From the IMG/VR virus record IMGVR_UViG_3300049491_001100, positions 1 through 55,857 of that record: 55,857 bases of DNA. One strand, written 5' to 3'. The notes beneath the pieces were generated by a model. It was given only the letters and a program-made list of their open reading frames with translations, did not search any database and was not told where the DNA came from. This DNA comes from a virus (taxonomy: Duplodnaviria; Caudoviricetes). Made by a program: the position numbers and the translations under genes. This document shows positions 1,402-50,050 of this stretch, in pieces; within the stretch, counting starts at the first letter, position 1, and every line of letters begins with the position of its first letter.

Positions 1402-3375
1402 ATGGGTCGAGTAGCCCTCCGCAAGATCGTCCTCAGCAACTTCAGGTCCTTCAAGGGCTTGCACGTTGTCGATCTACCCGTTGAGGGTCTGGTCATCATC
1501 AAGGGCCAGAATAAGGACACGAGAGGCGACTCAGGCGCCGGCAAGACCAACATCCTCCTGGCCATCGCCTACATCTTCGGTTACTGCCCGTACGCTGCCA
1601 CCGCCCTCCAGTGCTGGTACAGCGATGACCCGATGTACGTCGAAGCTACCCTAGAGACCGATGCTGGCACCGTTGTTGTTCGGCGCGGCGTCAAAGGTCT
1701 CGCCATCGGCAAGGTCAAGGGTAAGGCGGCCGAAGAGTTGCTGACGAAGACGTGTGGGGTGGACAGCTACCTGCGTCAAGCCCTCACTTACCGCGACCAA
1801 GTCAAGCCCATGCGCTTCTTGGACATGCGCGATGGCAAGATGAAGGAGTTCTTGATCGAGGTCTTGGGGCTCCAGGGCCTGGAAAAAGAGATCGACATCG
1901 CCCTCAACCGTCTCAACCAGAAGACGGTTGAGCTGGACCGAGCCAAGAAGGCCCTGGTAGATCGCCAGACGCTCCTGGAAGCCCTCCAGGCGCAGGCAGT
2001 CCCTTTCACACCCGAAGACACCACCGGCTTGGAAAGTGAGCTGGCGCAAGCCCAGAGCGAACTGGCGCAAATCAAGATGACACACCTGGCGGCTCGCTCC
2101 AGGGTGACCAAGGCCGAGGCCGACGAAGAGGCTGCCGCGACCGCTACCGAGCGCGCTGTCATGGCCAAGGGCGCAGCCCTTGCCGACAAGGTCCACGAAT
2201 GCGATGGGCACATCGCCACCTTCACCGAGGCCATGCAAAAGGCGAGAGCTGCCTACGACGCCGAGACCGAGGCCATGAGGAAGGAGGCCAGGAGCCTCCA
2301 CAACGAACTGGCGCGATCCTCTGGCTTGATGCTGGACATCGAGCGCATCCAGCGCGAAATCGAACACTTGCAGAAGAGTGTTTGCCCCACTTGCGATCGT
2401 ACCTGGGCTAACGCGGAGGCGGCTCTAGCGGATCATGAAGCCGTTCTGGTTCAAGCAGAAGCCAAGCTGGCAGCAACCAAGGCCCACCAACCCCGCGTCC
2501 ACGAGCTGGATGAAGCCATCGCCAGCCGCAGGTTCCAGCCAGACTCGCGCCTAGAAAAGCTGAAGCTCGTTCGCGTCAACCTAGCCCAACAATTAGCCGT
2601 CATCTCGGCAGAGGCCCACACGGCCAGGCGTGCCTTCTTGGGCGGCGATCGGGCGTCAAGCCAGCTCCGCAAACAAGAGTCGCTGGCAATGGAAGACCTG
2701 ATCAGCGCTCAGACGAAGACGACGGCACTGGAGGCCCAGCTCGGGTTTGCGAGACAGTCGAATCGTCAGGGCCAAGCAGCCTGGGATGCGCACCAGCTCA
2801 AGACAAAGGGTATGGCAAGGGGATTGGTGGAGCTGGCCCTGGCCGTTACGGCGGCAGAGTCGGGATATGGGGTCGAGGAAGACTACGTGAGCTTGCTCAA
2901 GGGATTCCGCAACAAAATCTTCGACGAGGTCTTGGCCGCGATCGGTGCTGAAGCCACCAACATCATCGCAACCCTGCCCAACGCCCAACACATCGCCATC
3001 GAGTTCCGTAGTGAACACGTGACGCAGAAGGATACCGTTCAGGAAAAGATCTCGGCCGTCACCACGGTCCACGGTCACGAGCGTGTACTGGCGGAATCGG
3101 TCAGTGGCGGCCAGCTCACCAGCATCAACCTCGCCGTCGACCTCGCCGTGGCTCGCGTCATCAGCGCACGCCTGGGCTGTAACTTGAACTGGATCATCCT
3201 CGACGAGTCCTTCAACGGGCACGACAACATTACCAAGGGTTCGTGCTTGGAGATGTTGCAGAAGTACGCAGCCGACAAGCTGGTGATCGTCGTCGACCAC
3301 ACGTCCGAGTTCAAGGAGATGTTCACCCAGACCATCGTGGTCAACTACCACGAGAAAGAGTCGAGCCTAGCATGA
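1402..3375 (+). CDS. SbcC/Rad50/T4 gp46-like SMC recombination ATPase
   Basis: NFRSF N-terminus, Walker A GDSGAGKT, coiled coil with CPTC zinc hook, signature SGGQ, Walker B ILDES, H-loop VDH. Confidence 0.92.
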   Translation: MGRVALRKIVLSNFRSFKGLHVVDLPVEGLVIIKGQNKDTRGDSGAGKTNILLAIAYIFGYCPYAATALQCWYSDDPMYVEATLETDAGTVVVRRGVKGLAIGKVKGKAAEELLTKTCGVDSYLRQALTYRDQVKPMRFLDMRDGKMKEFLIEVLGLQGLEKEIDIALNRLNQKTVELDRAKKALVDRQTLLEALQAQAVPFTPEDTTGLESELAQAQSELAQIKMTHLAARSRVTKAEADEEAAATATERAVMAKGAALADKVHECDGHIATFTEAMQKARAAYDAETEAMRKEARSLHNELARSSGLMLDIERIQREIEHLQKSVCPTCDRTWANAEAALADHEAVLVQAEAKLAATKAHQPRVHELDEAIASRRFQPDSRLEKLKLVRVNLAQQLAVISAEAHTARRAFLGGDRASSQLRKQESLAMEDLISAQTKTTALEAQLGFARQSNRQGQAAWDAHQLKTKGMARGLVELALAVTAAESGYGVEEDYVSLLKGFRNKIFDEVLAAIGAEATNIIATLPNAQHIAIEFRSEHVTQKDTVQEKISAVTTVHGHERVLAESVSGGQLTSINLAVDLAVARVISARLGCNLNWIILDESFNGHDNITKGSCLEMLQKYAADKLVIVVDHTSEFKEMFTQTIVVNYHEKESSLA

Positions 3376-4505: not shown

Positions 4506-5132
4506 ATGCGAATCCTAACGCTAGATCTCTCAACTCACGCCGGCTACGCCATCATGGACGGGGAGCCCGGTACGAAGCCGCAGCTAGTCTTCCACGGCAC
4601 CATCGACATCGACAAGAGCTTGCACGAGTTTGGGAAGTACCCAGACTGCTACCGCAAGGCCGCACGACACATGGCGGCCCTCATCCATTTTAACGTCACC
4701 AACATCGACAAATTTGAGGTGATCGTGATCGAGGAGATCAACCTCGGTCGCAATCGCTATACACAGAAGCTGCTGGAGAACATCCACACGGCAATGCTCG
4801 ATCAGATCGAGAGCTTCTGGCCGCACGCCAAGGTGGTCTACCTCGACTCAAGCGAGTGGCGCCACAATCTCGGTCTGAAGATGACGAAGGAGCAGAAGAA
4901 GCTCAACGCCAAGCTGTCCAAGGCGAAGAAGCTAGCCGCTCAGACCAACATCAAGCTCGACAAGAAGAAGCTCGGCATCAAGGGCAAGGTCAACGCCAAG
5001 CACCTGGCAGTGGCCCATGCCAACACAATTTTTGGCTTGCAGTTGAAGATGAAGCAGAACGATGCCGCAGATGCGATCTGCATCGGTCTCGCCTTCTTCA
5101 ACGGCGCAACGCCATGCGATGGAGTTCAGTGA
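4506..5132 (+). CDS. RuvC-like Holliday junction resolvase
   Basis: MRILTLDLSTHAGYA N-terminus, IVIEE, EWR, C-terminal NDAADAICIG (RuvC-fold acidic residues). Confidence 0.8.
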   Translation: MRILTLDLSTHAGYAIMDGEPGTKPQLVFHGTIDIDKSLHEFGKYPDCYRKAARHMAALIHFNVTNIDKFEVIVIEEINLGRNRYTQKLLENIHTAMLDQIESFWPHAKVVYLDSSEWRHNLGLKMTKEQKKLNAKLSKAKKLAAQTNIKLDKKKLGIKGKVNAKHLAVAHANTIFGLQLKMKQNDAADAICIGLAFFNGATPCDGVQ

Positions 5133-7009
5133 TGGGTAAGGAATGGAGCACCCTGGCCAAGGTGGTGTTCAAGAGGACGTATGCACGCAAGCTCTTCCAA
5201 GGCACTTCGCTGGAGCGCCTGGAGAGCTACGCCGAGACCGTGGATCGCGCCATCATGGGCAACGTCCGCAATCACAATGTCAGTGATGCCGAGATTGCGC
5301 GTCTCAAGTACTTCATGAACGAGCGCAAGGCAGGCCCCGCCGGTCGTGGCCTCTGGTTCAGTGGCACCGAGGCCCACTACAAGATCGGGGGCGTCGCTCT
5401 CAACAACTGCTGGTTCGTTACCAGCGCCGACTGGCTCTCGTTCGCCATCGCCTGCGATCTCCTCATGCTCGGTGGCGGTGTCGGCATCAGCGTCGAACAC
5501 AAGTACACGTCGAAGCTACCCAAGATCAAGAAGGGCGTCGTCATCGCTCACAAGGGAACCAAGGATGCGGACTTCATTGTCCCCGACAGCCGCGAGGGCT
5601 GGTGCGAGCTGCTACGCCGTGTCCTGGAGGCGTTCTTCGTCACCGGCAAGGGGTTCACGTACTCGACGGTGTGTGTTCGTGGCTATGGTGAAGCCATCGC
5701 CGGCTTCGGTGGGACTGCCAGCGGCCCCATCCCCCTCATCGAGCTGATCACCAACCTCTGCGGCATCATCATCGCCCGCGAGGGCAAGGCCGTGCGTCCG
5801 ATCGACGCCGCCGACGTCCTCTGTGCCATCGGCGACATGGTTGTCGCTGGCAACGTCCGCCGTTCGGCTATCATCATCATCGGCGATGCCTACGACAAGG
5901 AATACCTGAAGGCAAAGCGCTGGGACCTGGGCACGCTGCCGAAGTACCGCAGCTCTGCCAACTGGTCCATCAACGTCGAGGACATCGAAGACGTCCACCC
6001 GACCTTCTGGAAAACGTACGAGCACGGCGAGCCCTTCGGCATCGTCAACATGACCAACATCCGCAAGTACGGTCGCATGGGCGAGCTGCGAAAGGACACG
6101 GCAGAAGGCGTCAATCCCTGCGGCGAGGCCACGCTGGAGCCCTACGAGCCATGCAACCTACAAGACATCGACCTCCCCAACCTCGACGGTGAGGCAGAGT
6201 TCTTCGAGGCCTGCCGCCTCATGCAGCGCTGGGGCAAGCGAGTCACGTTGGAGCGCTACCACATCCCGCAGGTGGCTGAGGTCATCGAGCGCAACCGCCG
6301 CATCGGGACCAGCATCACCGGCTGCTTGCAGTCGCCCCTGTTCAACCCCCACACGCTCGACCGCGCCTATGCCGAGATCCGCAAGGCCGACACCGAGTAC
6401 TCGAAGGAGTTGGGCATCAATGAGTCCATCCGCAACACGACACTGAAGCCATCGGGTACGAAGTCAAAGATGGACGATGTCGATGGTGAGGGCATCCACG
6501 CCGGCTACAGCCGCTACGCCATCCAGCGCGTTCGCTTCGCCTCAAACGACAAGCTGCTCCCAATTCTCCGGGAAGCTGGCCACCACATGGAGCCGGTCAT
6601 CAACCTGGACGGAACCCTCAACCACGGCACCCAGGTCGTCGATTTCTACAAGAAGGCCCCCGAGAACCTGCCCTGCGCCGACGAGGGCTTCGACACCTGG
6701 AAGCAGCTCGATGCCCTCGTTGTAGCTCAGCGTCACTGGAGCGACCAAGCCGTCTCCGTGACCGTTTACTACAAGCGTGAGGAGATCCCGCAGATCAAGG
6801 CTTGGCTGGGCCAGAACCTGAAGTCGCTGAAGTCTATCTCCTTCCTCTGTCACTCGGAGCACGGCTTCAAGCAGGCCCCGAAAGAAGCTATCTCTCGGGA
6901 AGAGTTCGAGAAGTTGAGCGCGAAGATCAAGCCCATCGACGTCGATGGCATCGGTGAGGGCGATCTCGACAGCCTCGAATGCGCTGGCGGGGTCTGTCCT
7001 GTCAAGTAG
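5132..7009 (+). CDS. nrdJ: class II (adenosylcobalamin-dependent) ribonucleotide reductase
   Basis: PAGRGLW, NNCWF, GGGVG, DSREGW, VVAGNVRRSA, NPCGE..LE..EPCNL, KPSGT, C-terminal CAGGVCPVK; start coupled by TGATG. Confidence 0.92.
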   Translation: MGKEWSTLAKVVFKRTYARKLFQGTSLERLESYAETVDRAIMGNVRNHNVSDAEIARLKYFMNERKAGPAGRGLWFSGTEAHYKIGGVALNNCWFVTSADWLSFAIACDLLMLGGGVGISVEHKYTSKLPKIKKGVVIAHKGTKDADFIVPDSREGWCELLRRVLEAFFVTGKGFTYSTVCVRGYGEAIAGFGGTASGPIPLIELITNLCGIIIAREGKAVRPIDAADVLCAIGDMVVAGNVRRSAIIIIGDAYDKEYLKAKRWDLGTLPKYRSSANWSINVEDIEDVHPTFWKTYEHGEPFGIVNMTNIRKYGRMGELRKDTAEGVNPCGEATLEPYEPCNLQDIDLPNLDGEAEFFEACRLMQRWGKRVTLERYHIPQVAEVIERNRRIGTSITGCLQSPLFNPHTLDRAYAEIRKADTEYSKELGINESIRNTTLKPSGTKSKMDDVDGEGIHAGYSRYAIQRVRFASNDKLLPILREAGHHMEPVINLDGTLNHGTQVVDFYKKAPENLPCADEGFDTWKQLDALVVAQRHWSDQAVSVTVYYKREEIPQIKAWLGQNLKSLKSISFLCHSEHGFKQAPKEAISREEFEKLSAKIKPIDVDGIGEGDLDSLECAGGVCPVK

Positions 7010-8633: not shown

Positions 8634-9758
8634 ATGGCGAAGGGCGACCGAGAGGCAAAGAAGGCTAATGAAAGGTCCGTGCTGGACTACCTCCAGCAGC
8701 GCGGCCTAGAGGACGAGACCAGAGTTCGCGTACGGCGCAACTCCGCTGCCACGGCTGCCGTGGGCAGGGAGGCATTGTTCTCGGACCAGCTCAAAGACGC
8801 CCTCTCGGAAGTCTTCACCGAGCGCGTGATCCCAAAGTTCAAGCCGGGCAAGTCCAAGGGGAAGACACAGAGGATCCTGAACGTGATCTTCTCCGACACC
8901 CACTACGGCAGCGACCTCGATCCGCGAGAGCTGGGGCACAAGTACGGGCCCGTCGAGGAGGCTCGCCGCACGGCAGCGGTCTGTCGTGAGGTGGCGCAGT
9001 ACAAGCTGCACTACCGAAGCGAGACCGAGCTGTACGTTCACATCCTGGGCGACATCATCCAGGGTCAGCTCCACGACCAGCGAGACGGCAAGCCGCTCGC
9101 CGAGCAGGCGTCAGCAGCAATCCGCATCTTCGTCAACGCCATCACCTACCTCGCTCAAGCATTCCCCAAGGGCGTGACCGTGCTCTGCACCCCAGGCAAT
9201 CACGGCCGCAACTCCGCTCGTCATCGTGAGCGCGCAGTCAATCAGAAGTGGGACAGCATCGAGACGATCATCTACACCGCCATCAAAGAGGCGGTTCGCA
9301 ATATCTCGAACGTCAAGGTACTCGTCGACTACCCGGCCGAGTACGAGTTCGAGTCCTTCGACAACGTGGGCTATGCAACCCACGGTGACACTCACTTCAA
9401 CCCGGGCTACCCCGGTAAGAATGTGGATGCCGGTGGCTTGAAGCGCCAGATGGACTCCAAAAACAATGCTCGCGTTCTCGCTGGCAAGAAGCCATACAGC
9501 CTCTTCATCGTGGGCCACGTCCACGTCGGGACTATGCTCCACCTCCCCGGCGGGGCAATCGCTCTCACGAACGGCTGTCTTCTGCCGCCAGACGCATATG
9601 CCAAGACCATCGGCATCGACACCACGTCCTGCGGTCAGTGGATGTGGGAGTCGGTCAAGGGCCACATCGTCGGAGACGCACGGTTCATCACCGTCGACTT
9701 CGACACCGACAAAGATGACTCCCTCGATGGGATCATCCAGCCCGTGCTGAGGTTGTAG
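8634..9758 (+). CDS. calcineurin-like metallophosphoesterase
   Basis: SDTHYG, GDIIQG, PGNHGR, THGD, GHVH motifs. Confidence 0.85.
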   Translation: MAKGDREAKKANERSVLDYLQQRGLEDETRVRVRRNSAATAAVGREALFSDQLKDALSEVFTERVIPKFKPGKSKGKTQRILNVIFSDTHYGSDLDPRELGHKYGPVEEARRTAAVCREVAQYKLHYRSETELYVHILGDIIQGQLHDQRDGKPLAEQASAAIRIFVNAITYLAQAFPKGVTVLCTPGNHGRNSARHRERAVNQKWDSIETIIYTAIKEAVRNISNVKVLVDYPAEYEFESFDNVGYATHGDTHFNPGYPGKNVDAGGLKRQMDSKNNARVLAGKKPYSLFIVGHVHVGTMLHLPGGAIALTNGCLLPPDAYAKTIGIDTTSCGQWMWESVKGHIVGDARFITVDFDTDKDDSLDGIIQPVLRL

Positions 9759-9794
9759 GCCAGCGCGCCCACGGGGCGCGCAGAAGACACAGGA

Positions 9795-10010
9795 ATGACA
9801 ACGGCTCAAGCTAAAGCTCTCATCGAGAGCGATCCCGACTTCATCTACAGCAAGCGCTTCAATTACAGCCTCAAGGAACTGCAACTGCGGTACCCTGACG
9901 GCTGTCCAGATCGCATCATCGCCGCCGTCCTCATGATCACCGAGGACGACGTCGAGGCCGTGTATCAGAAGATCGTGCTCAAGCTCCGCAACTGCATGGG
10001 CCTCGGTTGA
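9795..10010 (+). CDS. small HTH protein resembling an isolated sigma70 region 4
   Basis: RYPDGCPDRIIAAVLMITEDDVEAVYQKIVLKLRNCM matches the sigma 4.2 pattern by eye. Confidence 0.55.
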   Translation: MTTAQAKALIESDPDFIYSKRFNYSLKELQLRYPDGCPDRIIAAVLMITEDDVEAVYQKIVLKLRNCMGLG

Positions 10011-10019
10011 TTCGCTATA
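10009..10019 (+). promoter_or_regulatory. phage motif GATTCGCTATA
   Basis: Fused to TGA; SD-led gene follows. Confidence 0.8.
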
Positions 10020-10038: not shown

Positions 10039-10260
10039 ATGAAGAATGAGACTCGGAAGTCCACCCTGGACGAGCTGTCACACGCCGTCGGGGAGTACAA
10101 CCACGCCAGAGGTAAGTGGCAAGAAGCTACGCGCATGGTCGAAGCCAAGCGCAAGGAAATGGAATCGTTCATGCGAGACGAGGCCAAGACCAAGGCAGAG
10201 ATGGATCGCTTTGCCGCCACCCTCTACCGTATCGCCAACGACCTGGAGAAAATGCCGTGA
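10039..10260 (+). CDS. hypothetical coiled-coil protein
   Basis: GAGGAGG RBS after the promoter motif. Confidence 0.7.
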   Translation: MKNETRKSTLDELSHAVGEYNHARGKWQEATRMVEAKRKEMESFMRDEAKTKAEMDRFAATLYRIANDLEKMP

Positions 10261-10615: not shown

Positions 10616-10831
10616 GTGTGCAAGCACGATCACGTCCGCTTTGAGGATGGAACCCTACACCTGGTCTGCATCGACTGCGGACAGGTGTGGGCTGCCCTCG
10701 ATCGCAAGGGCGGAATGATCAATCACATGCTGACCTACGAAAACCGCATGTATTCGCCAGATACCCGTCACAGCCGTTGGGAAGTACCCCGCCTCACCCC
10801 GCTCACCCCGCCCAAAAGTAGCCGCCACTGA
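10616..10831 (+). CDS. hypothetical Zn-binding protein
   Basis: CKH...CIDC; stop overlaps the promoter motif. Confidence 0.6.
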   Translation: MCKHDHVRFEDGTLHLVCIDCGQVWAALDRKGGMINHMLTYENRMYSPDTRHSRWEVPRLTPLTPPKSSRH

Positions 10832-10849: not shown

Positions 10850-13800
10850 ATGCGCAACTTCGCGACGCCACACTGCCACGTACAGTCGCTAGATAGCGCC
10901 AGCACGCCCCAGGCCTTCGCTGAGCGCGAGTTGGAGTTGGACACCGGTGTCATCACGGTGACCGACCACGGCTCTCTGGCGGCCTGCCAGGCCGTCTACG
11001 AGCTGGCTCGCGAGAAGAAGCTGACCCCAGTCCTCGGCCTTGAGGGCTACTTCCGCGACGACAACTGCCCCATCCTCCTCAATCAGGGTGTGTCTAGGGT
11101 CAACGGTAAGTTCGACAACTTCATCAAGTACCACCACTTCACCACCCACTTCCTCGATCAGGCTGCGTTCCAGGTGGGTGTCAAGCTCCTGTCACGAGCG
11201 CCCATCGAGAAGCACGGGTCTGAATCCAAGCCGCTCTTCAACTGGAGCGACATGGAAGAGCTGGGGGCAGCCAACACCACGATCACCACCGGTTGCCTCA
11301 TCGGCATGGTGCAGCGCTTCCTCCTCGACAAGCAAAGCCCAGAACTGGCGATCAAGTATTACGAGCGGCTGCGGGCCCTGGTCAAGCCGGGGAACATGTA
11401 CGTTGAGGTCTTCCCCCACATCTGCTCCCACAACTGGGTCGACGGCGTCTTCCTCACTCTCAAGGAGGGTGACGGTGCGGAGTTCAAGCTCCGCTTCTAT
11501 TCTGGCAAGACACTCAAGACCAATGCGGGCGAGATCAAGGCCTCTGACCTGGCGACTGAGTTCAACCGCAAGGGCAACAAGCACGATACCTTGCTCGCGG
11601 TCAAGGACTACCACACCTGGAACGATCGCACCCCAGCCACCATCGTCGACGTTCAGGAGGTTGTGGACGAGCACGGCAACAAGGGCGCGTTCATCCAAAA
11701 CGAGTGCCGCCCCTTTGCTCCCGATGGCGACGTCCAGCTCGGTGCCAATCAGTTCATGTTGGAGATGGCGCAGAAGTACGGCGACCCCATTCTCGTCAGT
11801 GATGACAGTCACTACGCCCACCCCGAGGAGAAGATCGTCCAGGACGTGCGGCTGGCGCAGTCGGGGTCGTGGCGCTTCTACGGCAGCTATCACCGCCAGT
11901 CTAGCGCCGAGGCCTTCGAGTACTTCAAGAACAAGCTCAACGTCAGCGAGAAGCAGTTCGAGGGCTGGGTGGAGAACAGCCACGCCTGGGCGTCCCGCTT
12001 CAAGGACTTCAGGCTGGAAGCAAAGCCGAGTTTGCCGACGAAGTTCTACGAGGAGAAGTATGCAGCGGTTGGCGCAACCAACAGCCTGGAGTACACGCTC
12101 CACCTCATCAAGAAGCGCGGTCGCTTCGTCGAGAAGCCGGAGTATCGGGCTCGGCTGAATCAGGAAATCAAGCTCCTCTACGCCAATGGCGTCATCGATC
12201 TCCTCCCCTACTTCTTCATCGACGAAGAGGTCTGCGATCTCTACACCCGCAACAACATGTTGACGGGTCCCGGGCGAGGTTCGGCCGCTGGCCTCCTCCT
12301 CACCTACTACCTCGGCATCACCCACGTCGACCCCATCCGCTACGGCCTCAGCCTGGACCGCTTCCTCACCCTGGACCGCATCAAGTCGGGTAAGCTACCC
12401 GACATCGACCAGGACTTGCCCTCGCGAGATCTGCTCGTAGGCCCCGACGGCAAGCACGGCTGGCTCCACGAACGCTTTGGTGATCACGTGGCGCAGATCT
12501 CGACCGTGATGACGCTGCGCCTCCGCAACGCCGTCCTCGATGTCACCCGCTTTACCTTGGGCAAGGTGCCGCCGGTGGTGTCGGACCTCACGCGCAAGTT
12601 CCTGATGCCGCCTCAGGGGCTCGACGACCACAAGTTCGTCTTCGGCTATGAGGACAGCGGGGCCTGGGTCGACGGCTCTATCGTCCACGACACGGCTCTC
12701 CAAGAGTACGTCAGACTGTACCCGAACCAGTGGAAGATCGTGCAGAAGTGTCTGGGACTAGGTCGTGGCGTTAGTCGCCACGCCTGTGCCTACGTTATCG
12801 CTAACAAGCCCATTGTCGAGATGGGAATCCCGCTGACCAAGATCAGCGACGTCACTTGCACCGCATTCACGGCCAGTGCCGTCGAGGCCATGGGCGGGCT
12901 GAAGATGGACTTCCTCGTCATCAACAGCCTCAACGACATCGCCGCCGCCATCAAGATGATTCAAGACCGATCTGGTCTGACCGTCCCCGAAGACGGCACG
13001 AAAGTCGATGGTCGGTGGGTTCCTAGCGTCCAGCTCGTGCCGTACAAGGGCAAGCTCGTCGACATCTGGGATTTGCCACCGGCTCAAGAGGTCTTCGCTG
13101 ACATCGCCACCAGCAAGACTGAGACCGTGTTCCAGTTCAACACCCACGGCGCCCAGCAGTGGCTGAGAAATTTCGCCTTCAAGAAGGACAACGGCAACTA
13201 TACCATCGACAGCGTCGATGAGATGGCGGCGTTCACCGCCCTCGATCGCCCAGGCCCGCTCGACGCCGCCGTCACAACTCCTGGCCAGAAGAGGCAGGAA
13301 GAGTGGGAGAAGAGAAAGCGTCGTCCATCGCCGTGGAGTGACACCATCACAGGCGGTGTTGGTCTGTCGCCCGGCGCCCCCATCCCAGGCTTCGAGCCCG
13401 ATCGTTACGAGGATGAAAAGGATGGCAAGGTCCACAACATGCTCGTCGAGTACGCTCGGCGCGCTCGCGGGCTGGCGCCGTCGCCCGACATCTTCGCCGT
13501 CTTCGATAAGCTCTTCCCAGAGACCCACGGCGTCATGGTCTATCAGGAACAGCTCCAGCGCCTCTACCAGGAGGTGACCGGCTGTTCTGGTGCTGAGGCC
13601 GAGGAGTTCCGAAGCAACGTCGCCAAGAAGAAGAAGGAAAAGATCATCGAGGCCTACCCCAAGTTCATTGAGGGTGGCACCAAGAGCATGGGCTCGAAGG
13701 CGGCGGCGGAATCGGTGTGGCAGTTCATCCAGAGCTGGGCCGCATACGGCTTCAACAAGTCGCACGCTGTCTGCTACAGCGTTGTCGGCTACGCCTGCGC

Positions 13801-14935
13801 CTTCCTCAAGCACTTTTACCCGCTGGAGTGGTGGACAGCCGTCCTCCGCAACGCGACCAAGGAAGAGATCAACGAGAGCTTCTGGCGCCACTGCGGACAC
13901 CTGATCAACCTCCCCGATGTGACCAGGGCCCACAACAACTTCGCCATCGTTGGTGATCGCATTCAGGCCCCGCTGTCACTGCTCCAGGGCGTGGGTGAGG
14001 TCGCCCACCAAGAGCTGGTTGCTGGCGCACCCTATACCAGCATGGCAGACCTCGTGGCCAAGATCGAGCAGAAGAAGATCGATGGCACGAGACCGGGCAA
14101 GGTCAAGAAGACGGTGAAGGAGAAGGACCCCAACACCGGAGAGGAGACCAAGAAGAGGGTTGAGGTCGATGGTACCATCAAGGGCCGCAGTGCCCTCAAT
14201 CGAGGTATCGTCTACAAGCTCATCATCTCCGGCGCCATGGACAAGCTCTTCGATGAGGAGTTGACCACGAACGAGATGTTGGCTGCGTACGAGAAGGCTT
14301 GCTTCGACTACGAGCAGGCAGCCCGCGTCCTCGCCGGCAAGAAGCCGTCGAAGAAGGCGGCCCCACCACCAGTCGACAAGCGCTTCACTGGCCTCAACCA
14401 GTACACGCGCTACCAGCTCCGCAAGGAGATCTTGCCCGCGTACAGCGAGTCCGTGTTGAAGTCGTTGGTCGAGCGCAAGCACGAGCGCATCTTCCTGGGT
14501 TCACGCGGCTACGTCTACAAGTGGAGCAAGGCCGTCTCCTTCGGCGATCCCGAAGCTATCGCCAGGCTGTCGGCCGTCGAGTTCTCGGAGAAGGGGCAGG
14601 GGATCCGCGTCGCCGTGGCCGCCTATGTCTCCGACGTTCGCATCTTCCGCTACGGCGACAAGAAGCAGTTCGCGGCCTGTGATCTCAGCGTGGACGTTGA
14701 CGGAGAACGCATGAAGTTTGTGCGCTGGCCGACCCGCGAAACCGATGAGGACGGAGAAGAGATCCAGTTCCTCGACCACCGCTTTACGCCGGAGCTGAAA
14801 GGGGCGCTGGTAATCCTCGTCCTCGGACGATTCAAGACAGGTCGCCAATTCAGCATCGACGACATCGAAGTTATTCAGCCGGCGTATGTAGCAAAGACCG
14901 AAGAAGAAACCGAAGCAGAGGAGAGCAAAGAATGA
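10850..14935 (+). CDS. dnaE: DNA polymerase III alpha subunit (family C)
   Basis: PHP motifs HCH, TDHG, GLEGY, DSHY; GRGSAAG; PDIDQD; SRHAC; KMDFL; YQEQ; YGFNKSHA; C-terminal OB-like region. Confidence 0.96.
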   Translation: MRNFATPHCHVQSLDSASTPQAFAERELELDTGVITVTDHGSLAACQAVYELAREKKLTPVLGLEGYFRDDNCPILLNQGVSRVNGKFDNFIKYHHFTTHFLDQAAFQVGVKLLSRAPIEKHGSESKPLFNWSDMEELGAANTTITTGCLIGMVQRFLLDKQSPELAIKYYERLRALVKPGNMYVEVFPHICSHNWVDGVFLTLKEGDGAEFKLRFYSGKTLKTNAGEIKASDLATEFNRKGNKHDTLLAVKDYHTWNDRTPATIVDVQEVVDEHGNKGAFIQNECRPFAPDGDVQLGANQFMLEMAQKYGDPILVSDDSHYAHPEEKIVQDVRLAQSGSWRFYGSYHRQSSAEAFEYFKNKLNVSEKQFEGWVENSHAWASRFKDFRLEAKPSLPTKFYEEKYAAVGATNSLEYTLHLIKKRGRFVEKPEYRARLNQEIKLLYANGVIDLLPYFFIDEEVCDLYTRNNMLTGPGRGSAAGLLLTYYLGITHVDPIRYGLSLDRFLTLDRIKSGKLPDIDQDLPSRDLLVGPDGKHGWLHERFGDHVAQISTVMTLRLRNAVLDVTRFTLGKVPPVVSDLTRKFLMPPQGLDDHKFVFGYEDSGAWVDGSIVHDTALQEYVRLYPNQWKIVQKCLGLGRGVSRHACAYVIANKPIVEMGIPLTKISDVTCTAFTASAVEAMGGLKMDFLVINSLNDIAAAIKMIQDRSGLTVPEDGTKVDGRWVPSVQLVPYKGKLVDIWDLPPAQEVFADIATSKTETVFQFNTHGAQQWLRNFAFKKDNGNYTIDSVDEMAAFTALDRPGPLDAAVTTPGQKRQEEWEKRKRRPSPWSDTITGGVGLSPGAPIPGFEPDRYEDEKDGKVHNMLVEYARRARGLAPSPDIFAVFDKLFPETHGVMVYQEQLQRLYQEVTGCSGAEAEEFRSNVAKKKKEKIIEAYPKFIEGGTKSMGSKAAAESVWQFIQSWAAYGFNKSHAVCYSVVGYACAFLKHFYPLEWWTAVLRNATKEEINESFWRHCGHLINLPDVTRAHNNFAIVGDRIQAPLSLLQGVGEVAHQELVAGAPYTSMADLVAKIEQKKIDGTRPGKVKKTVKEKDPNTGEETKKRVEVDGTIKGRSALNRGIVYKLIISGAMDKLFDEELTTNEMLAAYEKACFDYEQAARVLAGKKPSKKAAPPPVDKRFTGLNQYTRYQLRKEILPAYSESVLKSLVERKHERIFLGSRGYVYKWSKAVSFGDPEAIARLSAVEFSEKGQGIRVAVAAYVSDVRIFRYGDKKQFAACDLSVDVDGERMKFVRWPTRETDEDGEEIQFLDHRFTPELKGALVILVLGRFKTGRQFSIDDIEVIQPAYVAKTEEETEAEESKE

Positions 14936-18826: not shown

Positions 18827-19858
18827 GTGCAGATGTACCACTTCAAGGGAGCAGATCCAGCAGTACTACTCCAGATCTTGAAGGAGTCGCGCCTCAAGTA
18901 CGATCAGACCTCGGTCTCGTACGTCTTCACATGCCCCAGGTGTCAGGGCAAGAAGAAGCTCTATATCCGCAAGGCAGACGGCCGCTTCGTTTGCTGGAAG
19001 TGTAAGGAGACGGAGTCGTACCAGGGTCGGCCAGAGTTTGCCCTCGCCGATCTCCTCAGTCAGCCCGTCAAGCAGGTTCAGTCGCGTCTGTATGGCGGCG
19101 AGCACATTCCTGTCAGTCTCTACCTCGACGTCAAAGTCAAGGACTTCTTCGGCGATGATGACGACGTAGACGACGACGCCGTCGAGATCGCTACCACGTT
19201 CTGGCCCCTGGAGTACCTGCCCATCGATCACGTCCACGCCGCCCGTGGCGCCGAGTACCTGCACGGACGCGGGATCCCGCTCTGGATGGCGAAGAAGTAC
19301 GACATCCGCTACTGCCCACAGAAGCGCCGAGTTGTGTTTCCTGTTAACTCTGGCCCGGCGCTGTATGGTTGGCAGGAGCGTATCGTCATCCCGAACAAGT
19401 TCATCGACGAAGACGGGAACGAGCGAGAAATCCCCAAGATCCTGTCATCGACCGGGATCCCCAGGGACAGGACGGTCATGTTCGCGGACAGGCTGCAAGG
19501 CGTCGACCACGCCATCCTGTGCGAGGGCCCCGTCGATGCCTTGAAGGCCCACTTCTGCAAGGGGAACGTGGCCGCCATGGGCAAGGCCGTGTCCAGGGAG
19601 CAGGTGCGCTTGCTCGTCAACGCCGGCATCAAGAAGCTCTACCTCGCCCTCGACCCAGACGCCGCCGATGAAATCCAGCGCCTGGTACGGAACAACTACG
19701 ACGACTTCGAGATGTACGAGATGATCGCGCCAGCTAAGACCGGTCGCGACAAGTACGACTTGGGGGCGATGGAGTTTGCGGAAGTGGACGACCTCTTTCG
19801 TTCAGCCGCCCGGATCGGACCCGGGCGGCTATTCATCCACCTCAGCTACAAGTACTAG
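18827..19858 (+). CDS. DNA primase (Zn finger + TOPRIM)
   Basis: CPRC...CWKC, YLHGRGI, RVVFP, LCEGPVDAL, LALDPDA; start GTG 18827 or ATG 18833. Confidence 0.88.
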   Translation: MQMYHFKGADPAVLLQILKESRLKYDQTSVSYVFTCPRCQGKKKLYIRKADGRFVCWKCKETESYQGRPEFALADLLSQPVKQVQSRLYGGEHIPVSLYLDVKVKDFFGDDDDVDDDAVEIATTFWPLEYLPIDHVHAARGAEYLHGRGIPLWMAKKYDIRYCPQKRRVVFPVNSGPALYGWQERIVIPNKFIDEDGNEREIPKILSSTGIPRDRTVMFADRLQGVDHAILCEGPVDALKAHFCKGNVAAMGKAVSREQVRLLVNAGIKKLYLALDPDAADEIQRLVRNNYDDFEMYEMIAPAKTGRDKYDLGAMEFAEVDDLFRSAARIGPGRLFIHLSYKY

Positions 19859-21387
19859 AGCCCGATCGAGCGCTTCCAGTTGTTGAAGGTGCCGACGCGG
19901 TGCTTGGCCGTCGAGACCGACAGCTTCTGTCCCTTGTGGGCACCGGACTTGACCTCGAAGTTCTCCATCACGAACTTGAGCAGCTTGGCCGGCGACGCCT
20001 CGCCATCCTCGAAGTACCAGGAGAAGAGGCTGAGTTCGCTGGAGCCGAGGACAGCCGCCCGGAACACGGCCTTCTCCTCATCGGAGCCTGGAGTGGTCTG
20101 AGCCAACTCCTGTCCCGTGGCCGTGACCACACCACCACCGACGAACCCGAGCATAACCGCAGCCCGCTGGTAGTAGCGGACCTGACGCTGGTCGACGCCC
20201 ATGGCCTCGATGAGTTCGGCCACGGTCGTGAGTCCATTCTTCATACCCGTGACCACGGCCCGAACCAGGTCGAGCTGGGCCGCCTGCGGGATGATGGCGG
20301 CGTCGAAGAGAACGGTCTTGACTTCCTTGGGGGTGCAGATGTCACACCCCTCCTGGTGTGTGCGCAGGCGTCGGTTGGCCTCCTTGCGGGCGCTGAAGTC
20401 GACGTTGGCGTTGGTGGTGGTGCTGGTGAGGATGTCCACCATCCGATCGTGCGGCATCGACTCCAGGAGTTGTCCCAGCTTTTCCGATGCCGAGGCCTTG
20501 CGAGCTGCCTGCGACGACAGGTCCAACTGGCAGTTCCTGGCGATGTAGTCGTAGTCGATCTCCTCGATCTCGTCCTCATCTTCGTTGAGCCGATCCATCT
20601 TGGCGACCAGGATGGACTCGGGATTGGGCGAAGATTCCAGGTCGGCACCGGGGTCGCTGAAGAGAGCCACTGCCACGGCCTCTTCGTTGGGGAGGACTGA
20701 CCGCTCCTGCTTCAGGAGCAGGGGCTGGAGGTCGCAGTGGAACCGCTGCTGGAGATAGCGGTAGAGCTTGCGCTCGTTGTCGAAGTGGGTCGGATTCGCG
20801 GTCTCGTAGCGGGTGCAGAAGTTCACGATCCAGCAGCGGGCGTACTGGAAGAGGTCGTTGATGTCGAGGCCGTTCCGCTTGCAGAGGTGATCGTTGAGGC
20901 GGAAGAAGCCCCAGGCCACGCGCTCCATCGTGGGCTTGTACTGGGCCCAGACGTGTGCGGGCGGGTTCACGGAGCGGCGGAACTCGGTGTGACGGATGGC
21001 GACGTCGAAGGCGTTGTCCCGGTAGTGGAGCTTGCGCGGGTTGCCCTTGTCGTTGGCCTCGGGCTCGGCGCCCCGGCTGATGGGTTGGAGGCGTTCGTAG
21101 CCCGCTGCGTCCGTGACCTTCCAGAAGCCCTCCAGGGCCTCGGAGAGCTTCTTGCCGGTCAGGACACCGGCCAGCACCTGGACATCGCCTGCGGGGTCCT
21201 GGGCTGCATCCAGAGCCACCTGGACCTGCATCAGGGTTCCGTCTTCCTTGGTCACGACCAAGTCGCACCCAGCAGCCTTTGAGGGCTGAACATCGATCCC
21301 CACCGCCCGCAGCCACGACCGCAGCGTGTTCACGGCGGTGCTGTTGCGTCCCTGAGCCGTGAATGGAGCCTTCTTCGCGTTGGACAT
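19855..21387 (-). CDS. putative phage sigma-factor-like transcription regulator (sigma2-like + HxxxCxxC + C-terminal winged helix)
   Basis: Start reassigned to ATG 21387 (GAGGAGG RBS; 510 aa); YKPTMERVAWGF...GLDINDLFQYA...TRYE resembles sigma region 2; HQEGCDIC; IPQA...RQVRYY..AA.MLGF...STAKHRVGTF..W resembles a DUF7226-type wHTH. Confidence 0.5.
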   Translation of the reverse strand: MSNAKKAPFTAQGRNSTAVNTLRSWLRAVGIDVQPSKAAGCDLVVTKEDGTLMQVQVALDAAQDPAGDVQVLAGVLTGKKLSEALEGFWKVTDAAGYERLQPISRGAEPEANDKGNPRKLHYRDNAFDVAIRHTEFRRSVNPPAHVWAQYKPTMERVAWGFFRLNDHLCKRNGLDINDLFQYARCWIVNFCTRYETANPTHFDNERKLYRYLQQRFHCDLQPLLLKQERSVLPNEEAVAVALFSDPGADLESSPNPESILVAKMDRLNEDEDEIEEIDYDYIARNCQLDLSSQAARKASASEKLGQLLESMPHDRMVDILTSTTTNANVDFSARKEANRRLRTHQEGCDICTPKEVKTVLFDAAIIPQAAQLDLVRAVVTGMKNGLTTVAELIEAMGVDQRQVRYYQRAAVMLGFVGGGVVTATGQELAQTTPGSDEEKAVFRAAVLGSSELSLFSWYFEDGEASPAKLLKFVMENFEVKSGAHKGQKLSVSTAKHRVGTFNNWKRSIGL

Positions 21388-21414
21388 GAATCCTCCTCGA
21401 TCCGGTGTGGATCC

Positions 21415-21425
21415 TATAGCGAATC
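21415..21425 (-). promoter_or_regulatory. phage motif GATTCGCTATA (minus strand)
   Basis: Only minus-strand copy seen; upstream of the sigma-like gene RBS. Confidence 0.8.
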
Positions 21426-21466
21426 TACAACAGCTTTCTGGAGCATATTTTGCCCCAGCAAGAGCC

Positions 21467-21495
21467 AGCGTACGCGAGATCGCTCGACCTGTCAA
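21467..21495 (-). promoter_or_regulatory. sigma70-type promoter for the sigma-like gene
   Basis: TTGACA-17 nt-TACGCT on the minus strand. Confidence 0.75.
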
Positions 21496-21545
21496 CAGGA
21501 TATGGCCATTCACGTACTTTCAGACACTTAGCTACAACAGTCGGA

Positions 21546-46399: not shown

Positions 46400-49300
46400 C
46401 TATTCCTCTCTCGCCGCTGCCAAGTCGGCATCGACGTCGTCCGAGCCCCAGACCGCGACCTTGTCCGAGAGCTTGTTGGACCCGGACGCGGGCAAGCCCT
46501 CGCCGGCCAGGCCTCTGTCGCCGGGGAAGACAACGGCACTGTTGACGGTGATGCCGGCGCCAACCGCTGCTTCGATCGCCTGCTGAGCCGCGACGCGACC
46601 TGCTGGCGACGCCGTGATGTAGAAGGAGCCGACGTCCTCGGGGGCATCTGGCACGAATGGCCCCTTGTGGGCGAGGGCGGTGACGTTGGTGCCAGACTTG
46701 ACCGTGGCCGGAAACTTGAAGCCGTAGTCGAGGCTGAGGCTGGTGGCGCTGAGCCTGCCAAAGTACTTGACAGGAGCTACTTGGTTGTCGTAGCCGAAGC
46801 TGAAGACGAGCCAACCCTCTTCATCTGGGAATTGGGTCGCGTCTGCCACCTCGACGCTGGCGTAGCGCTGGCCCTTGTTGAGGTCTTGGGCTGTGGTTGA
46901 CTGATTGCTGGTGACGGCGACGCCATCGTCTGGACTGAAGATGTAGGGGCCTGGGATTGCGCTGGCAACAGCCTTGACCGGCGTCGCGATGCCGTCGCTG
47001 CTGCCGTTGAGCGTGTACTGGGTCTCGTTGGTCTCATACGTGAACGTGGTCGCTGTCACCGGCGCCACGACTTGGAAGATGCCGTTGAGGCCACCGCCAA
47101 GGAACTTGTCGGCGTTGGGCACATACAGAGACAGGCTCGATGCCGAGTTGCCGGTGGCGGGGTTGTAGCCGCCGACGATGGCGATGAGGTCGTCGCCTGC
47201 AATCGCGGAAGCCGCGCCGGCCCTGCGCGTGGCCAGGGTAGCAGATCCAACCGTCCACTTCATGCGGACGGGGTCAAAGAGTTCGGTCTTGAAGCCACCG
47301 ACGACGTCGCTGCCTCCAGCAACCACGACCTGGTTGCGGCTGCTCAGGTACTCGGCAACGACAGTGTCACGACCCCAATTCAACTTGCCCGCAGGCTGCC
47401 AGGCGCCTGTGGTCGGGTTCCAGATCTCGGCGTCGAGGACGTCGATAGGGTCCGTCGTTGGCTGCGTCGGGTTGAAGCCGATGCCGCCAACCACGAGCAC
47501 GCGCCCATCGTTCAGGAGCAGGGCGCGGTGCCCGAAGCGGGCGTTGGCGAGGCGGCCGGTATAGGCCCAGGTGTTCGGGGCCTGTCCATTGATGGTGACT
47601 GACCACGGATTGTAGATCTCGCAGGTACCGGAGATAGCACCAATCTCAGAGCGAACGCTCCAGTAGAACTTTGACCCAGTGCCAAGGCTTCGGCCGCCAA
47701 TGACTAGGACACGACCGTCCTGGAGAACAACGGCCTGGTGCTGAACGCGAGCTTCTGCCATAGACGCCATGGCGACGAAGTTGTTGCCGAGGCCTTCGAC
47801 AGCGCTGTAGCGCTCGCATGAGCTGAGAGCGGTGGGGTTGATGGCATCGCCACCTACGTTGAGCCCACCCATGGCGAAGAAGCCGCCGTGTTGAGTGGTT
47901 CCAGGCACATTGAGAGTAACCTGAGCGTGGGCTGCGCGCTTGGTGACGAGGACGGTGGTGCCGTTGGCGTAGGTGCCTGGTGTAGACGAGCCCGAGATCG
48001 TGGGCGTGAACACGCCCGTAGTCGTGACGACGTCGCGGCCCCCGAACAAGCTCTCGCCACCGCTGACAAAGACCTGGCCGTAGTACCAGCTCGGGTTGAT
48101 GCCGAGGCTGGCACCGGGGTAGTTGAGGGCATGTGGGACTGCGTTCGAGCCACCGCCCTGATCGGTCTCAATGAACGCGACCTGAATGCTGCCGTTGGCG
48201 AGTCGGGTCTGACCCGTGATCATGAGGCCATTGAAGAAGGTGATGCTGTCGTTGATGCTGCCGCTGACGAGGGCGTAGCCGAAGCCGTGAAAGATGCGGC
48301 CGTCGAGGAGGCGGACGGCGACGCCGCCTGCGGCTCCATTGGCGTGGACGGTGCCAGCCGTGGCCGACCAGATCGAGCCCTTGCTCAGGTCGCTGGTGGA
48401 TGCGACTAGGGGCCCGGGGTAGCTGCCGGCGACAGTGCCTGGGATGGTGGTAGCGCCAAAGACGCCATCGATCATGACCTGGTCGCCGATGGCGAGGCCG
48501 TGGTTGGTGGCGGTGGTGACGGAGACAATGCCTTCGATGCGTTCGAGGGACGTGATGGCGCTGCCGGCATTGAGCTGGCCGTAGCTAGCCTTGGTCTTTG
48601 AGCGGCCGACAGCCTGAGACGTTGCCGGCAGCACGATGTCGACTTCGTCGGGGAGCGAGGACACGACCACAGCTCGTTCCCGCGAGGTGTGGATGGTCTT
48701 CCGCGTCGGCCTGAAGAAGATCATGGACTCGATCTCGACCTGGGTCACGGACTGGGCCGTCCCATTCACGTTCTCGATCTCGAAGTACTCGGTCAGGACG
48801 CCGGCTGGGTAGGCAATGTAGACGTCGACGATGGCGAAGCTGCCACGGTTTGCGGGCAAGAACTCAATGCCATAGATGTTGACGTAGTCGCCGATGCGGA
48901 CCTGGTTTAGGTCTGGATTGAGGACGCCGCCCACGGTCTTGGCGAAGCGAATCCTGTTCGTGAGCAGGTTCTTGGTGATGGTCCAGGTAGGGAGCAAGGC
49001 CAGTCCATCCCAGGTAGGGAGCAGGTCCGCGAACTGGAGCGAGTTCTGGGCCTTGCCACCACTGACACGGGCGCTGCTGCTGAGGCCAAGGGCGCCGCTG
49101 TAGATGCGGACCTTGGTAGTACCGTCCTGGGGGTCGGTGACAGCAACGGCAAAGGCGCGGCTGTCGTTGAAGCGGAAGCTGCGGGTGAGGGCGGCTGCGA
49201 CCTCGGCGGCGTTGGCGATGCCGGCAATCGCAAAGTCGTCCTCCATGAAGACGGTGGAGATGGTCTTGTTCTCGTCGAGGACGACGACAAGATCATCACC

Positions 49301-50050
49301 CTCTTCCATGAAGAAGGGCTCGGAGAGGCCGCTGTCGACATGGGCGCGGACGCTGTCGGCGCCGTAGAAGACTTCAAGGATGTCGAGGAGCGAGCCCTCG
49401 ACGAGCTTACCCGTCGTGTTCTTGATCGCGTACTGACGGAAGAGTTCATCGGGCATGCCGATGTTCTTCGGCTTCTGGAGGCCATCGTCAGCAGCTTTGC
49501 GTTCGAGGTAGATGCCGGATGCGCTGATCTTGAAGAGCTGATCGAAGGCGGTCTTGGCGGCGTCGAGATTTTTCTGGTCACCGGTGGCGATGGCGGCGAT
49601 CAGCGCATCCCAGGCGTCTCCCTTGAGGGCTGGGTTGAGGTGCTTGCGCAGGATCTCGGCGGGGCCGTCGGTGACAGCGCCCTTGGCCACAGGCTCCTGG
49701 GCCGAGAGCAGGGTGACGGTAAAGCTGCCACTGCGTGGGTTCGAGATTGTGGTCGCGTCCGTCATCTGGACGTTCGTAGCTACGGTAATGGTCCAGGTGC
49801 CTGCTACGAGGGGCCCGGCCAGGAAGAGGTCGATGGCCTGGGGATCGCTGAAGACGGGGGCGGCGCTGGAGATGGCGTTGAGGCCAGGGCCAGAGAGGAC
49901 GTAGTTGAAGGGATTGGTGGCGTCGTTGGCGCCAGAGCTGGAGACAGCGAGCGGGTCCTGGGTGAAGCGCAGGCGAATGGTCGCAAGCGCGATCTGAGTC
50001 ACGCTTTGGAGGCTGAAGCCTGAGCCTGTGAATGTAACGAGAGAGGACAT
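46400..50050 (-). CDS. large baseplate wedge-like protein with Kelch repeats
   Basis: ASGIYLER.A.D.G..KP..IGMPDELFR (wedge-like); repeats AR..H.A..L.DGRVLV.GG...E.YNP...W. Confidence 0.7.
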   Translation of the reverse strand: MSSLVTFTGSGFSLQSVTQIALATIRLRFTQDPLAVSSSGANDATNPFNYVLSGPGLNAISSAAPVFSDPQAIDLFLAGPLVAGTWTITVATNVQMTDATTISNPRSGSFTVTLLSAQEPVAKGAVTDGPAEILRKHLNPALKGDAWDALIAAIATGDQKNLDAAKTAFDQLFKISASGIYLERKAADDGLQKPKNIGMPDELFRQYAIKNTTGKLVEGSLLDILEVFYGADSVRAHVDSGLSEPFFMEEGDDLVVVLDENKTISTVFMEDDFAIAGIANAAEVAAALTRSFRFNDSRAFAVAVTDPQDGTTKVRIYSGALGLSSSARVSGGKAQNSLQFADLLPTWDGLALLPTWTITKNLLTNRIRFAKTVGGVLNPDLNQVRIGDYVNIYGIEFLPANRGSFAIVDVYIAYPAGVLTEYFEIENVNGTAQSVTQVEIESMIFFRPTRKTIHTSRERAVVVSSLPDEVDIVLPATSQAVGRSKTKASYGQLNAGSAITSLERIEGIVSVTTATNHGLAIGDQVMIDGVFGATTIPGTVAGSYPGPLVASTSDLSKGSIWSATAGTVHANGAAGGVAVRLLDGRIFHGFGYALVSGSINDSITFFNGLMITGQTRLANGSIQVAFIETDQGGGSNAVPHALNYPGASLGINPSWYYGQVFVSGGESLFGGRDVVTTTGVFTPTISGSSTPGTYANGTTVLVTKRAAHAQVTLNVPGTTQHGGFFAMGGLNVGGDAINPTALSSCERYSAVEGLGNNFVAMASMAEARVQHQAVVLQDGRVLVIGGRSLGTGSKFYWSVRSEIGAISGTCEIYNPWSVTINGQAPNTWAYTGRLANARFGHRALLLNDGRVLVVGGIGFNPTQPTTDPIDVLDAEIWNPTTGAWQPAGKLNWGRDTVVAEYLSSRNQVVVAGGSDVVGGFKTELFDPVRMKWTVGSATLATRRAGAASAIAGDDLIAIVGGYNPATGNSASSLSLYVPNADKFLGGGLNGIFQVVAPVTATTFTYETNETQYTLNGSSDGIATPVKAVASAIPGPYIFSPDDGVAVTSNQSTTAQDLNKGQRYASVEVADATQFPDEEGWLVFSFGYDNQVAPVKYFGRLSATSLSLDYGFKFPATVKSGTNVTALAHKGPFVPDAPEDVGSFYITASPAGRVAAQQAIEAAVGAGITVNSAVVFPGDRGLAGEGLPASGSNKLSDKVAVWGSDDVDADLAAAREE

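Follow-up and report, generated by a model that had tools for sequence, protein, structure and literature searches.

The stretch of viral DNA analyzed here, referred to as the window, comprises all 55,857 nucleotides from position 1 of the IMG/VR record IMGVR_UViG_3300049491_001100 (Duplodnaviria; Caudoviricetes), a record with a CheckV completeness of 34% whose closest named phage is Myxococcus phage Mx1. Between the gene of an SbcD/Mre11-like metallophosphatase (8634-9758) and the DNA polymerase gene DnaE (10850-14935) lies a small coding sequence on the plus strand (9795..10010), which we call X. Positions 33-69 of its product align to region 4.2 of sigma factors. What could such a small piece contribute to transcription? 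With some reserve, we regard X as the probable region-4.2 subunit, detached from the rest, of a phage sigma factor that consists of two polypeptides and is split inside domain 4.

That X encodes a protein was first proposed in an earlier note drawn up from the DNA alone, and the 71-residue open reading frame (ORF) is indeed present, starts with ATG and has exactly the sequence quoted there. Its GC content at third codon positions is 0.76 in a window of about 61% GC, which is what a coding frame of this genome should show. A set of 5.8 billion proteins contains 22 relatives of 56-87% identity. Searched against 1.84 billion cluster representatives, a profile of these relatives detects 403 at E<=1e-3, 181 of them at <=1e-10. 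Of the 150 matches listed among these 403, almost all stand alone and measure 66-100 residues. In the few longer members the N-terminal extension is of low complexity and contains no Pfam domain above threshold, so that they look like miscalled starts. X is a real, conserved gene.

Within 50,697 named phages, Mx1 is the sole match at E<=0.01 for each of three different members of the family. The Mx1 ortholog lies on the minus strand of record OR576727.2 at about 157482-157685 (9001-9204 of the extracted locus L001), where no coding sequence is annotated; the match shares ~44 nt with the end of an annotated hypothetical protein, and the Pol III alpha gene begins shortly after it. A pattern scan of the GTDB species representatives found no bacterial or prophage copies of X. 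One further locus, L007, was considered as a seventh X locus and rejected, as it has no hidden Markov model (HMM) match to the family.

The earlier note had also recognized the pattern of sigma region 4.2 in the C-terminal half of X, with no region 2. The absence of region 2 is confirmed, and the resemblance holds at the level of the family. Taken alone, the window protein matches nothing in Pfam (E<=1), PHROG or the NCBIfam models, and six-frame scans of the window with Sigma70_r4 (PF04545) and GerE (PF00196) gave no match at E<=10, so that the HMM threshold of neither family was reached. A profile of 130 members, on the other hand, aligns by hhalign to six E. coli sigma region-4 sequences over 51 columns (Prob 59.7, P=8.8e-5) and to three LuxR-type C-terminal domains (Prob 78.1, P=1.8e-5); none of 60 column shuffles reached either score. 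Searched against the PDB, the same profile finds the C-terminal domain of NarL (E=0.0068), followed by WhiG (0.1) and FliA (0.14).

Scanned one by one with Pfam, the 130 members match HTH_69 (16), Sigma70_r4 (nine, best E 6.8e-5), GerE (six, best E 1.4e-5) and Sigma70_r4_2 (four), and four of them match the PHROG sigma factor family phrog_5767. Two of 23 members match Pfam TTRAP at E=0.03. In the ESM Atlas, X lies next to small viral clusters that have Sigma70_r4 (PF04545) in 63-83% of their members, and the ortholog from the complete genome G001 matches NF007935 at E=0.0019. Residue by residue, positions 33-69 of the profile correspond to FliA 201-237 (13.2 bits), and positions 46-66 align without gaps to RpoD 580-600, sharing the hydrophobic scaffold of the helix-turn-helix (HTH) and a terminal K-L-R. 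The C-terminal half of X is an HTH of the sigma-4.2/LuxR class, an assignment that is clear at the profile level and weak for the window protein alone. Judged by these alignments, the match to sigma region 4.2 is moderate and, on the HTH alone, indistinguishable from one to a LuxR-type HTH.

An AlphaFold2 model built on the deep 130-sequence alignment reaches a predicted local distance difference test score (pLDDT) of 96.5 and a predicted template modelling score of 0.78, with all five models at 94 or above. It replaces an earlier, unstable model from 23 close sequences (pLDDT 87, 84, 65, 64, 62), whose comparison with BFVD gave no whole-domain match and was uninformative (best E=0.26, to a viral protein labelled 'sigma-70 region 4'). 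In the new model an N-terminal helix (3-12) and a conserved DPDF..KRF.YS loop precede a tri-helical HTH (26-32, 39-45, 50-67). Residues 30-71 superpose on domain 4 of SigL, SigW and SigH as well as on DesR with a root-mean-square deviation of 2.0-3.1 A over 36-40 residues, at Z 2.4-2.8 for the three sigma domains. The first 25 residues do not resemble region 4.1, with 13-25 mostly non-helical, and the fourth helix of NarL-type domains is absent: the last helix of the model spans 50-67 of 71 residues, and the alignments stop at NarL 200-204 of 216. No whole-model match in the PDB was found by Foldseek at E<=0.001 (best VIA Z 3.2). A confident monomer model that lacks a whole-domain counterpart fits an incomplete domain.

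The surface that would face DNA sets the family apart. In an ungapped alignment, positions 50, 51, 52 and 54 of X correspond to R584, E585, R586 and R588 of RpoD, which we take to be the residues that contact the -35 element in sigma-70. Among the 130 members, the acidic share at these four positions amounts to 72%, 62%, 82% and 67%, respectively, the median net charge is -2 and the median isoelectric point 5.2. The recognition helix of X thus does not carry the basic and polar residues with which sigma-70 contacts the -35 element. Acidic residues on the DNA-contacting face make both canonical -35 reading and LuxR-type operator binding doubtful; from its sequence, X is unlikely to read a canonical -35 element, and by analogy a role like that of T4 gp33 is possible.

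This surface also bears on the first alternative, in which X is an independent small LuxR/GerE-type 'solo' HTH regulator of the replication module or a neighbouring operon, unlinked to any sigma protein. Such a regulator would agree with the strongest similarities of the family, those to NarL and NF007935, with an HTH that is self-contained in three helices and with a conserved position beside DnaE. It is harder to reconcile with a helix whose DNA-contacting positions are acidic in most members of a mostly acidic family, and with a protein that stops right after its recognition helix, lacking the extra C-terminal helix of NarL. Since it would in addition leave unexplained the exact tiling with a sigma family devoid of region 4.2 and the interface predicted between the two, both described below, we regard it as unlikely.

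If X is the detached subunit that we favour, a second protein must supply the remaining sigma regions, and such a protein was found in relatives only. A scan of five related genomes with Sigma70_r2 gave sub-threshold matches (14-21 bits) in four, each in an open frame of 338-400 residues. Aligned by hhalign to E. coli FliA, RpoH, RpoS and RpoD, the four proteins reach Prob 96.5 and E=8.4e-10; their residues 141-331 correspond to FliA 12-200, and the frame ends four residues later. NCBIfam sigma models match as well (TIGR02937 at E=2.8e-9 for the Mx1 protein and at 1.5e-4 for a second sigma-like protein). The Mx1 copy is annotated as 'putative RNA polymerase sigma factor', and many homologs carry the JGI label 'specialized sigma subunit'. 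By all these comparisons, the proteins of about 350 residues are genuine, divergent members of the sigma-70 family with regions 2, 3 and 4.1 and no region 4.2.

Their early end recurs throughout the family. All 120 homologs listed of 635 matches measure 284-390 residues; in a regular-expression search of these 120, 88 stop 2-9 residues past a KLLxMxG motif, seven have longer tails and 25 do not match the expression. None of the 120 contains an X-like HTH (best 9.9 bits). In Pfam scans of 103 members, 12 match Sigma70_r2, and none of the four families reported is a region-4 family. Truncation before region 4.2 is, as far as these sequences tell, a trait of the family. Downstream of the sigma-like gene, three-frame translations read by eye show in all four relatives inspected (L018-L021) a conserved small ORF (...FILVPE...) followed by a second metallophosphatase-like gene (GDPH...GD).

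X and the sigma-like proteins complement each other along the sigma chain. On FliA, the sigma-like protein covers 12-200 and X 201-237; on the 165 positions of TIGR02937, the sigma-like proteins cover 3-128 or 3-129 and the G001 ortholog of X covers 129-165 (E=0.031). As X aligns to exactly the segment that the sigma-like proteins lack, it is a candidate for the missing piece. The two genes also occur together. From IMG/VR, 80 loci with the sigma-like gene were collected, of which the 42 on contigs of at least 47 kb were searched with the X profile, the 38 on shorter contigs standing outside the count. X is present in 34 of the 42, including all 13 contigs that are at least 90% complete; the eight misses are 30-57% complete. 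Among the 50,697 named phages, Mx1 is the only one with both genes. The sigma-like profile matches four of five records, among them both near-complete ones and the distant low-GC genome.

In the window itself, neither the sigma-like profile nor PF04542 matches anywhere. The spacing of the two genes in relatives offers an explanation: in G001, G006, G007 and G011 they lie about 13.5-14.6 kb apart on opposite strands; in G003 both are on the same strand. Scaled from these relatives, the sigma-like gene of the window phage is expected on the minus strand some 4-5 kb before base 1, so that its absence follows from a position beyond the left edge of a fragment that is 34% complete.

The earlier note had proposed a split sigma factor too, and had looked for the partner within the window, in a sigma2-like protein at 19855-21387. 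The idea of a two-piece factor is supported by the tiling, the co-occurrence and the complex predicted for relatives, and the partner it named does not hold up. The corresponding ORF (19855-21513, minus strand) encodes 552 residues, or 510 from an inner start, and shows no sigma signal: Pfam and PHROG gave nothing above noise, no NCBIfam family and no PDB entry matched, and neither PF04542 nor the sigma-like profile matched it in the scans of the window. The likely partner, judged from sequence and modelling, is instead the protein of about 350 residues found in the relatives. As for the rejected ORF, it follows just after the primase gene and shows weak similarity to DUF7226 and a MerR-like HTH at residues ~387-480 of the 510-residue form; in Mx1 the corresponding place is taken by a hypothetical protein, likewise on the minus strand.

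Do the two proteins fit together? A complex was predicted for the cognate pair of G001, a sigma-like protein of 351 residues (103-row alignment) and an X ortholog of 76 residues (131-row alignment). The interface score ipSAE was 0.62, 0.62 and 0.61, against 0.00 for all three controls; in a benchmark, the mark reached by this pair was attained by 58 of 80 solved complexes and by two of 110 mismatched pairs. Contacts agreed between runs to at least 62%, and the partner pLDDT was at least 74. On the sigma-like side, the predicted interface consists of residues 327-347 in the C-terminal helix, the ...DLPMMEKKLLRMRG tail. On the side of X it involves 10-14, 17, 26, 29-30, 33-37, 41-42, 45-46, 53, 56-57, 59-60, 63-64 and 67-68, a set of conserved, hydrophobic residues spread over helices 1-4 that leaves out the acidic 50-52 and 54. 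In the C-terminal part of the sigma-like family, conservation is highest at the docking motif (K341 in 103/103, G347 in 102/103 and L335 in 101/103 members), and the window's own X retains 18 of 27 interface residues, versus 21 of 44 elsewhere.

In the reading that we favour, the large subunit would be the sigma-70-family protein of about 350 residues, which comprises regions 2, 3 and 4.1 and ends a few residues past its ...L.E.KLLRMKG helix. We infer that this C-terminal 4.1 helix inserts into the hydrophobic groove formed by the helices of X, and that the two together would rebuild a unit resembling sigma domain 4 on the host RNA polymerase, presumably at the beta-flap. The rebuilt domain would probably not bind DNA in the manner of a canonical -35 hexamer reader; it might instead serve as an adaptor at the sigma-4 position, as T4 gp33 does.

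Several observations weigh against this reading. The best sequence matches of X are of the LuxR type, as in NarL, and not sigma factors; its helix 26-32 aligns to the end of region 4.1, which makes X a self-contained tri-helical HTH and not a bare half-domain. The partner gene lies outside the window, and all evidence on it comes from orthologs, in which the two genes are non-adjacent, about 14 kb apart and mostly on opposite strands, with X fixed beside a DNA polymerase gene in seven of seven loci. As both are core genes of one phage clade, their co-occurrence alone is no proof of partnership. The evidence for binding is the model's own confidence, whose calibration is only rough with custom alignments, and the halves of a split domain may score well through their resemblance to solved sigma-4 structures, that is, through the memory of the model. 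Finally, a search for longer proteins revealed no informative fusions of X and no fused sigma-X form, which is weak evidence.

The predicted interface can also be read differently. X might be an anti-sigma factor, a chaperone or a timing switch that binds the C-terminal helix of the sigma-like protein and forms no functional sigma domain 4 on RNA polymerase. The interface uses the hydrophobic groove of X, and the equivalent groove of sigma-4 domains is the binding site of the beta-flap tip helix and of anti-sigma factors; moreover, X has a region-4.1-like helix of its own, so that the tail of the sigma-like protein may fill a ligand site and not a core position. An inhibitor would, however, leave the family-wide loss of region 4.2 in the sigma-like proteins unexplained, and an obligatory subunit accounts at least equally well for two genes that co-occur strictly 1:1 in complete genomes. 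We consider such a regulator rather improbable.

A further alternative does away with the phage sigma factor and goes back to the second proposal of the earlier note: X would be a stand-alone sigma-4 decoy that occupies the beta-flap of RNA polymerase and shuts off host promoters that depend on the -35 element. A sigma-4-class HTH with an acidic surface unsuited to DNA binding would suit this function, and there is a precedent in T4 gp33, a sigma-4 mimic that is described as binding the flap tip, not recognizing DNA and repressing basal transcription (PMC2988020). This explanation takes no account of the tiling or of the docking predicted at the tail of the sigma-like protein, and the N-terminal half of X, mostly non-helical at 13-25, does not resemble region 4.1 in the model. 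As the sole function of X it seems quite improbable to us; competition for the flap is possible as a side effect of the split-sigma role.

X could, finally, be an accessory protein of the replisome or of recombination with an incidentally HTH-like fold, given that the order metallophosphatase-X-DnaE is found in six of six related, Mx1-like loci and also in a relative of 39% GC whose DnaE is only 30% identical, but this is very improbable, as gene order can be inherited within one viral clade with no functional link, searches of Pfam, PHROG, the PDB and structures revealed no similarity of X to a known replisome subunit, and in T4 the genes of transcription factors (rpbA, 55) are likewise located in the replication/recombination region.

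The remainder of the module surrounding X consists largely of genes for DNA metabolism. Upstream of the metallophosphatase gene are an SbcC-like gene (1402-3375), a class II ribonucleotide reductase gene (4856-7009) and, between the latter and the metallophosphatase, two genes of no assigned function; DnaE is followed by genes that are annotated in Mx1 as SSB, RecA-like and primase. The 36-nt gap that separates the metallophosphatase stop from the start of X harbours a GC-rich hairpin with an 8-bp stem on the plus strand (9763..9781), with an RNA folding energy of -17.7 kcal/mol (z -2.61; four of 200 shuffles fold as well) and no T-run after it. Three small ORFs lie between X and DnaE. One of these, at 10039-10260, encodes a coiled-coil-like protein of 73 residues. 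Another, at 10616-10831, encodes 71 residues with a zinc-ribbon-like CxxC...CxxC N-terminus (weak match to the TFIIB Zn-ribbon, E=0.013) and has a counterpart in the related locus L002. In the 39%-GC relative (L008, 7207-8512), two ORFs lie between X and dnaE: judged by eye from the translation, one, on the minus strand, has the look of a GIY-YIG homing endonuclease, and the other, of 222 residues, that of a DnaQ-type 3'-5' exonuclease.

A short repeated element accompanies many genes of the window. ATTCGCTATA occurs in 23 copies with at most one mismatch, against 0.44 expected, and 22 of these lie on the plus strand. The sites span 1384-40974 (for example 1384, 3979, 7010, 10010, 10831, 17593, 21547 and 39092), are often preceded by AG or TG and usually lie 7-30 nt upstream of a start codon, often beginning at the last base of the preceding stop. 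This is the case for the plus-strand copy at 10010..10019, which begins at the last base of the X stop codon, ahead of the next gene, which it may control. No position from -45 to -3 is conserved, and the element is therefore without a -35-like partner. Neither the minus-strand block at 42-55 kb nor the replication modules of the relatives contain it, and because of the latter it is not tied to the sigma system. We regard it as a candidate for either a single-element promoter or a regulatory site at the RNA level.

The minus-strand block encodes two very large proteins of 1216 residues (46400-50050) and 1253 residues (51542-55303). The former shows Kelch-repeat matches at residues ~767-966 and matches phrog_16216, and the latter has no family match; both are probably virion or tail-fibre-type proteins.

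How does the proposed pair compare with sigma factors that are known to be divided? Two-piece sigma factors are rare. The examples are T4 gp55/gp33, SPO1 gp33/gp34, B. subtilis SigO/RsoA and Tn916 Sig7/Sig8, which are described as either separating the functions of region 2 and region 4 or using an unrelated mimic of sigma-4 (bioRxiv 10.64898/2026.10.01.756105; PMC2988020). T4 resembles the proposed pair in its logic: acting with the gp45 clamp, gp55 and gp33 spread the sigma function over two phage proteins, and gp33 is described as a small protein at the sigma-4 position that recognizes no DNA sequence (PMC2988020). X likewise has an acidic DNA-facing helix, and its gene is situated in a replication/recombination region. 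In contrast to gp55, which by its description is minimal and region-2-like, the large subunit here retains regions 2, 3 and 4.1, and in contrast to gp33, described as a sigma-4 mimic, X belongs detectably to the sigma-4.2/LuxR class of HTH.

The tails of the two families, X and sigma-like, were compared with the same system in mind. X tails are short and acidic, and an -SL ending occurs in 13 of 173 proteins of the X family and in 22 of 120 of the sigma-like family; these endings are too weak for a shared docking motif, and a clamp-binding tail common to both is not established. They do recall the hydrophobic, acidic clamp-binding ends of T4 gp33 and gp55.

In B. subtilis, SigO (YvrI) and RsoA (YvrHa) jointly supply regions 2 and 4 (bioRxiv 10.64898/2026.10.01.756105); going by that description, their division runs between region 2 and region 4, whereas here the break falls between 4.1 and 4.2. 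Tn916 provides a two-subunit sigma factor of a mobile element, in which a small protein resembles region 4 (bioRxiv 10.64898/2026.10.01.756105), but Sig8 is described as RsoA-like and not as a full 2-3-4.1 sigma, and the Sig7 and Sig8 genes are adjacent, as opposed to about 14 kb apart. SPO1 gp33 and gp34 can be likened to our pair by description, as two phage proteins that direct late transcription (bioRxiv 10.64898/2026.10.01.756105). Compared with single-chain proteins, the C-terminal domain of the LuxR/GerE-type regulator NarL is the best sequence-level match to the HTH of X, which differs from it in ending after the recognition helix, in its acidic residues at the positions aligned to NarL 184-188 and in having no receiver or ligand domain. 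Region 4.2 of sigma-70, as in FliA and RpoD, shares its HTH scaffold and terminal K-L-R with X, yet places R584, R586 and R588 where X has mostly acidic residues, and it is not a separate polypeptide. A search of the literature, supplementary files aside, found no published description of this split arrangement, and in the Mx1 genome announcement the word sigma appears in the reference list only.

Taken further, these considerations lead to a tentative scenario, which we hold to be possible. A complete factor of the sigma-70 family would have been split inside domain 4, and its 4.2 piece would by now have turned into an acidic, non-DNA-binding adaptor whose gene sits in the replication module. 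Initiation at promoters devoid of a -35 element might then be gated by expression of this module, in a manner convergent with the logic of T4 gp55/gp33 and reached by fission of a complete sigma factor. The arrangement would be widespread in an uncultured clade of phages of about 165 kb that includes the myxophage Mx1, and since both Mx1 and Myxococcus xanthus can be cultivated, the case is directly testable.

If the proposal is correct, a sigma factor broken inside domain 4, with its HTH on a polypeptide of 71 residues, would be new, and it would demonstrate that a sigma-4 domain can be assembled from separate proteins. For the phage, the two genes would constitute a simple AND gate for the timing of transcription, and engineered split-sigma switches could take this natural arrangement as their template. 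A gene that lacks annotation in Mx1 and is 'hypothetical' in hundreds of metagenomic phages would moreover gain a function.

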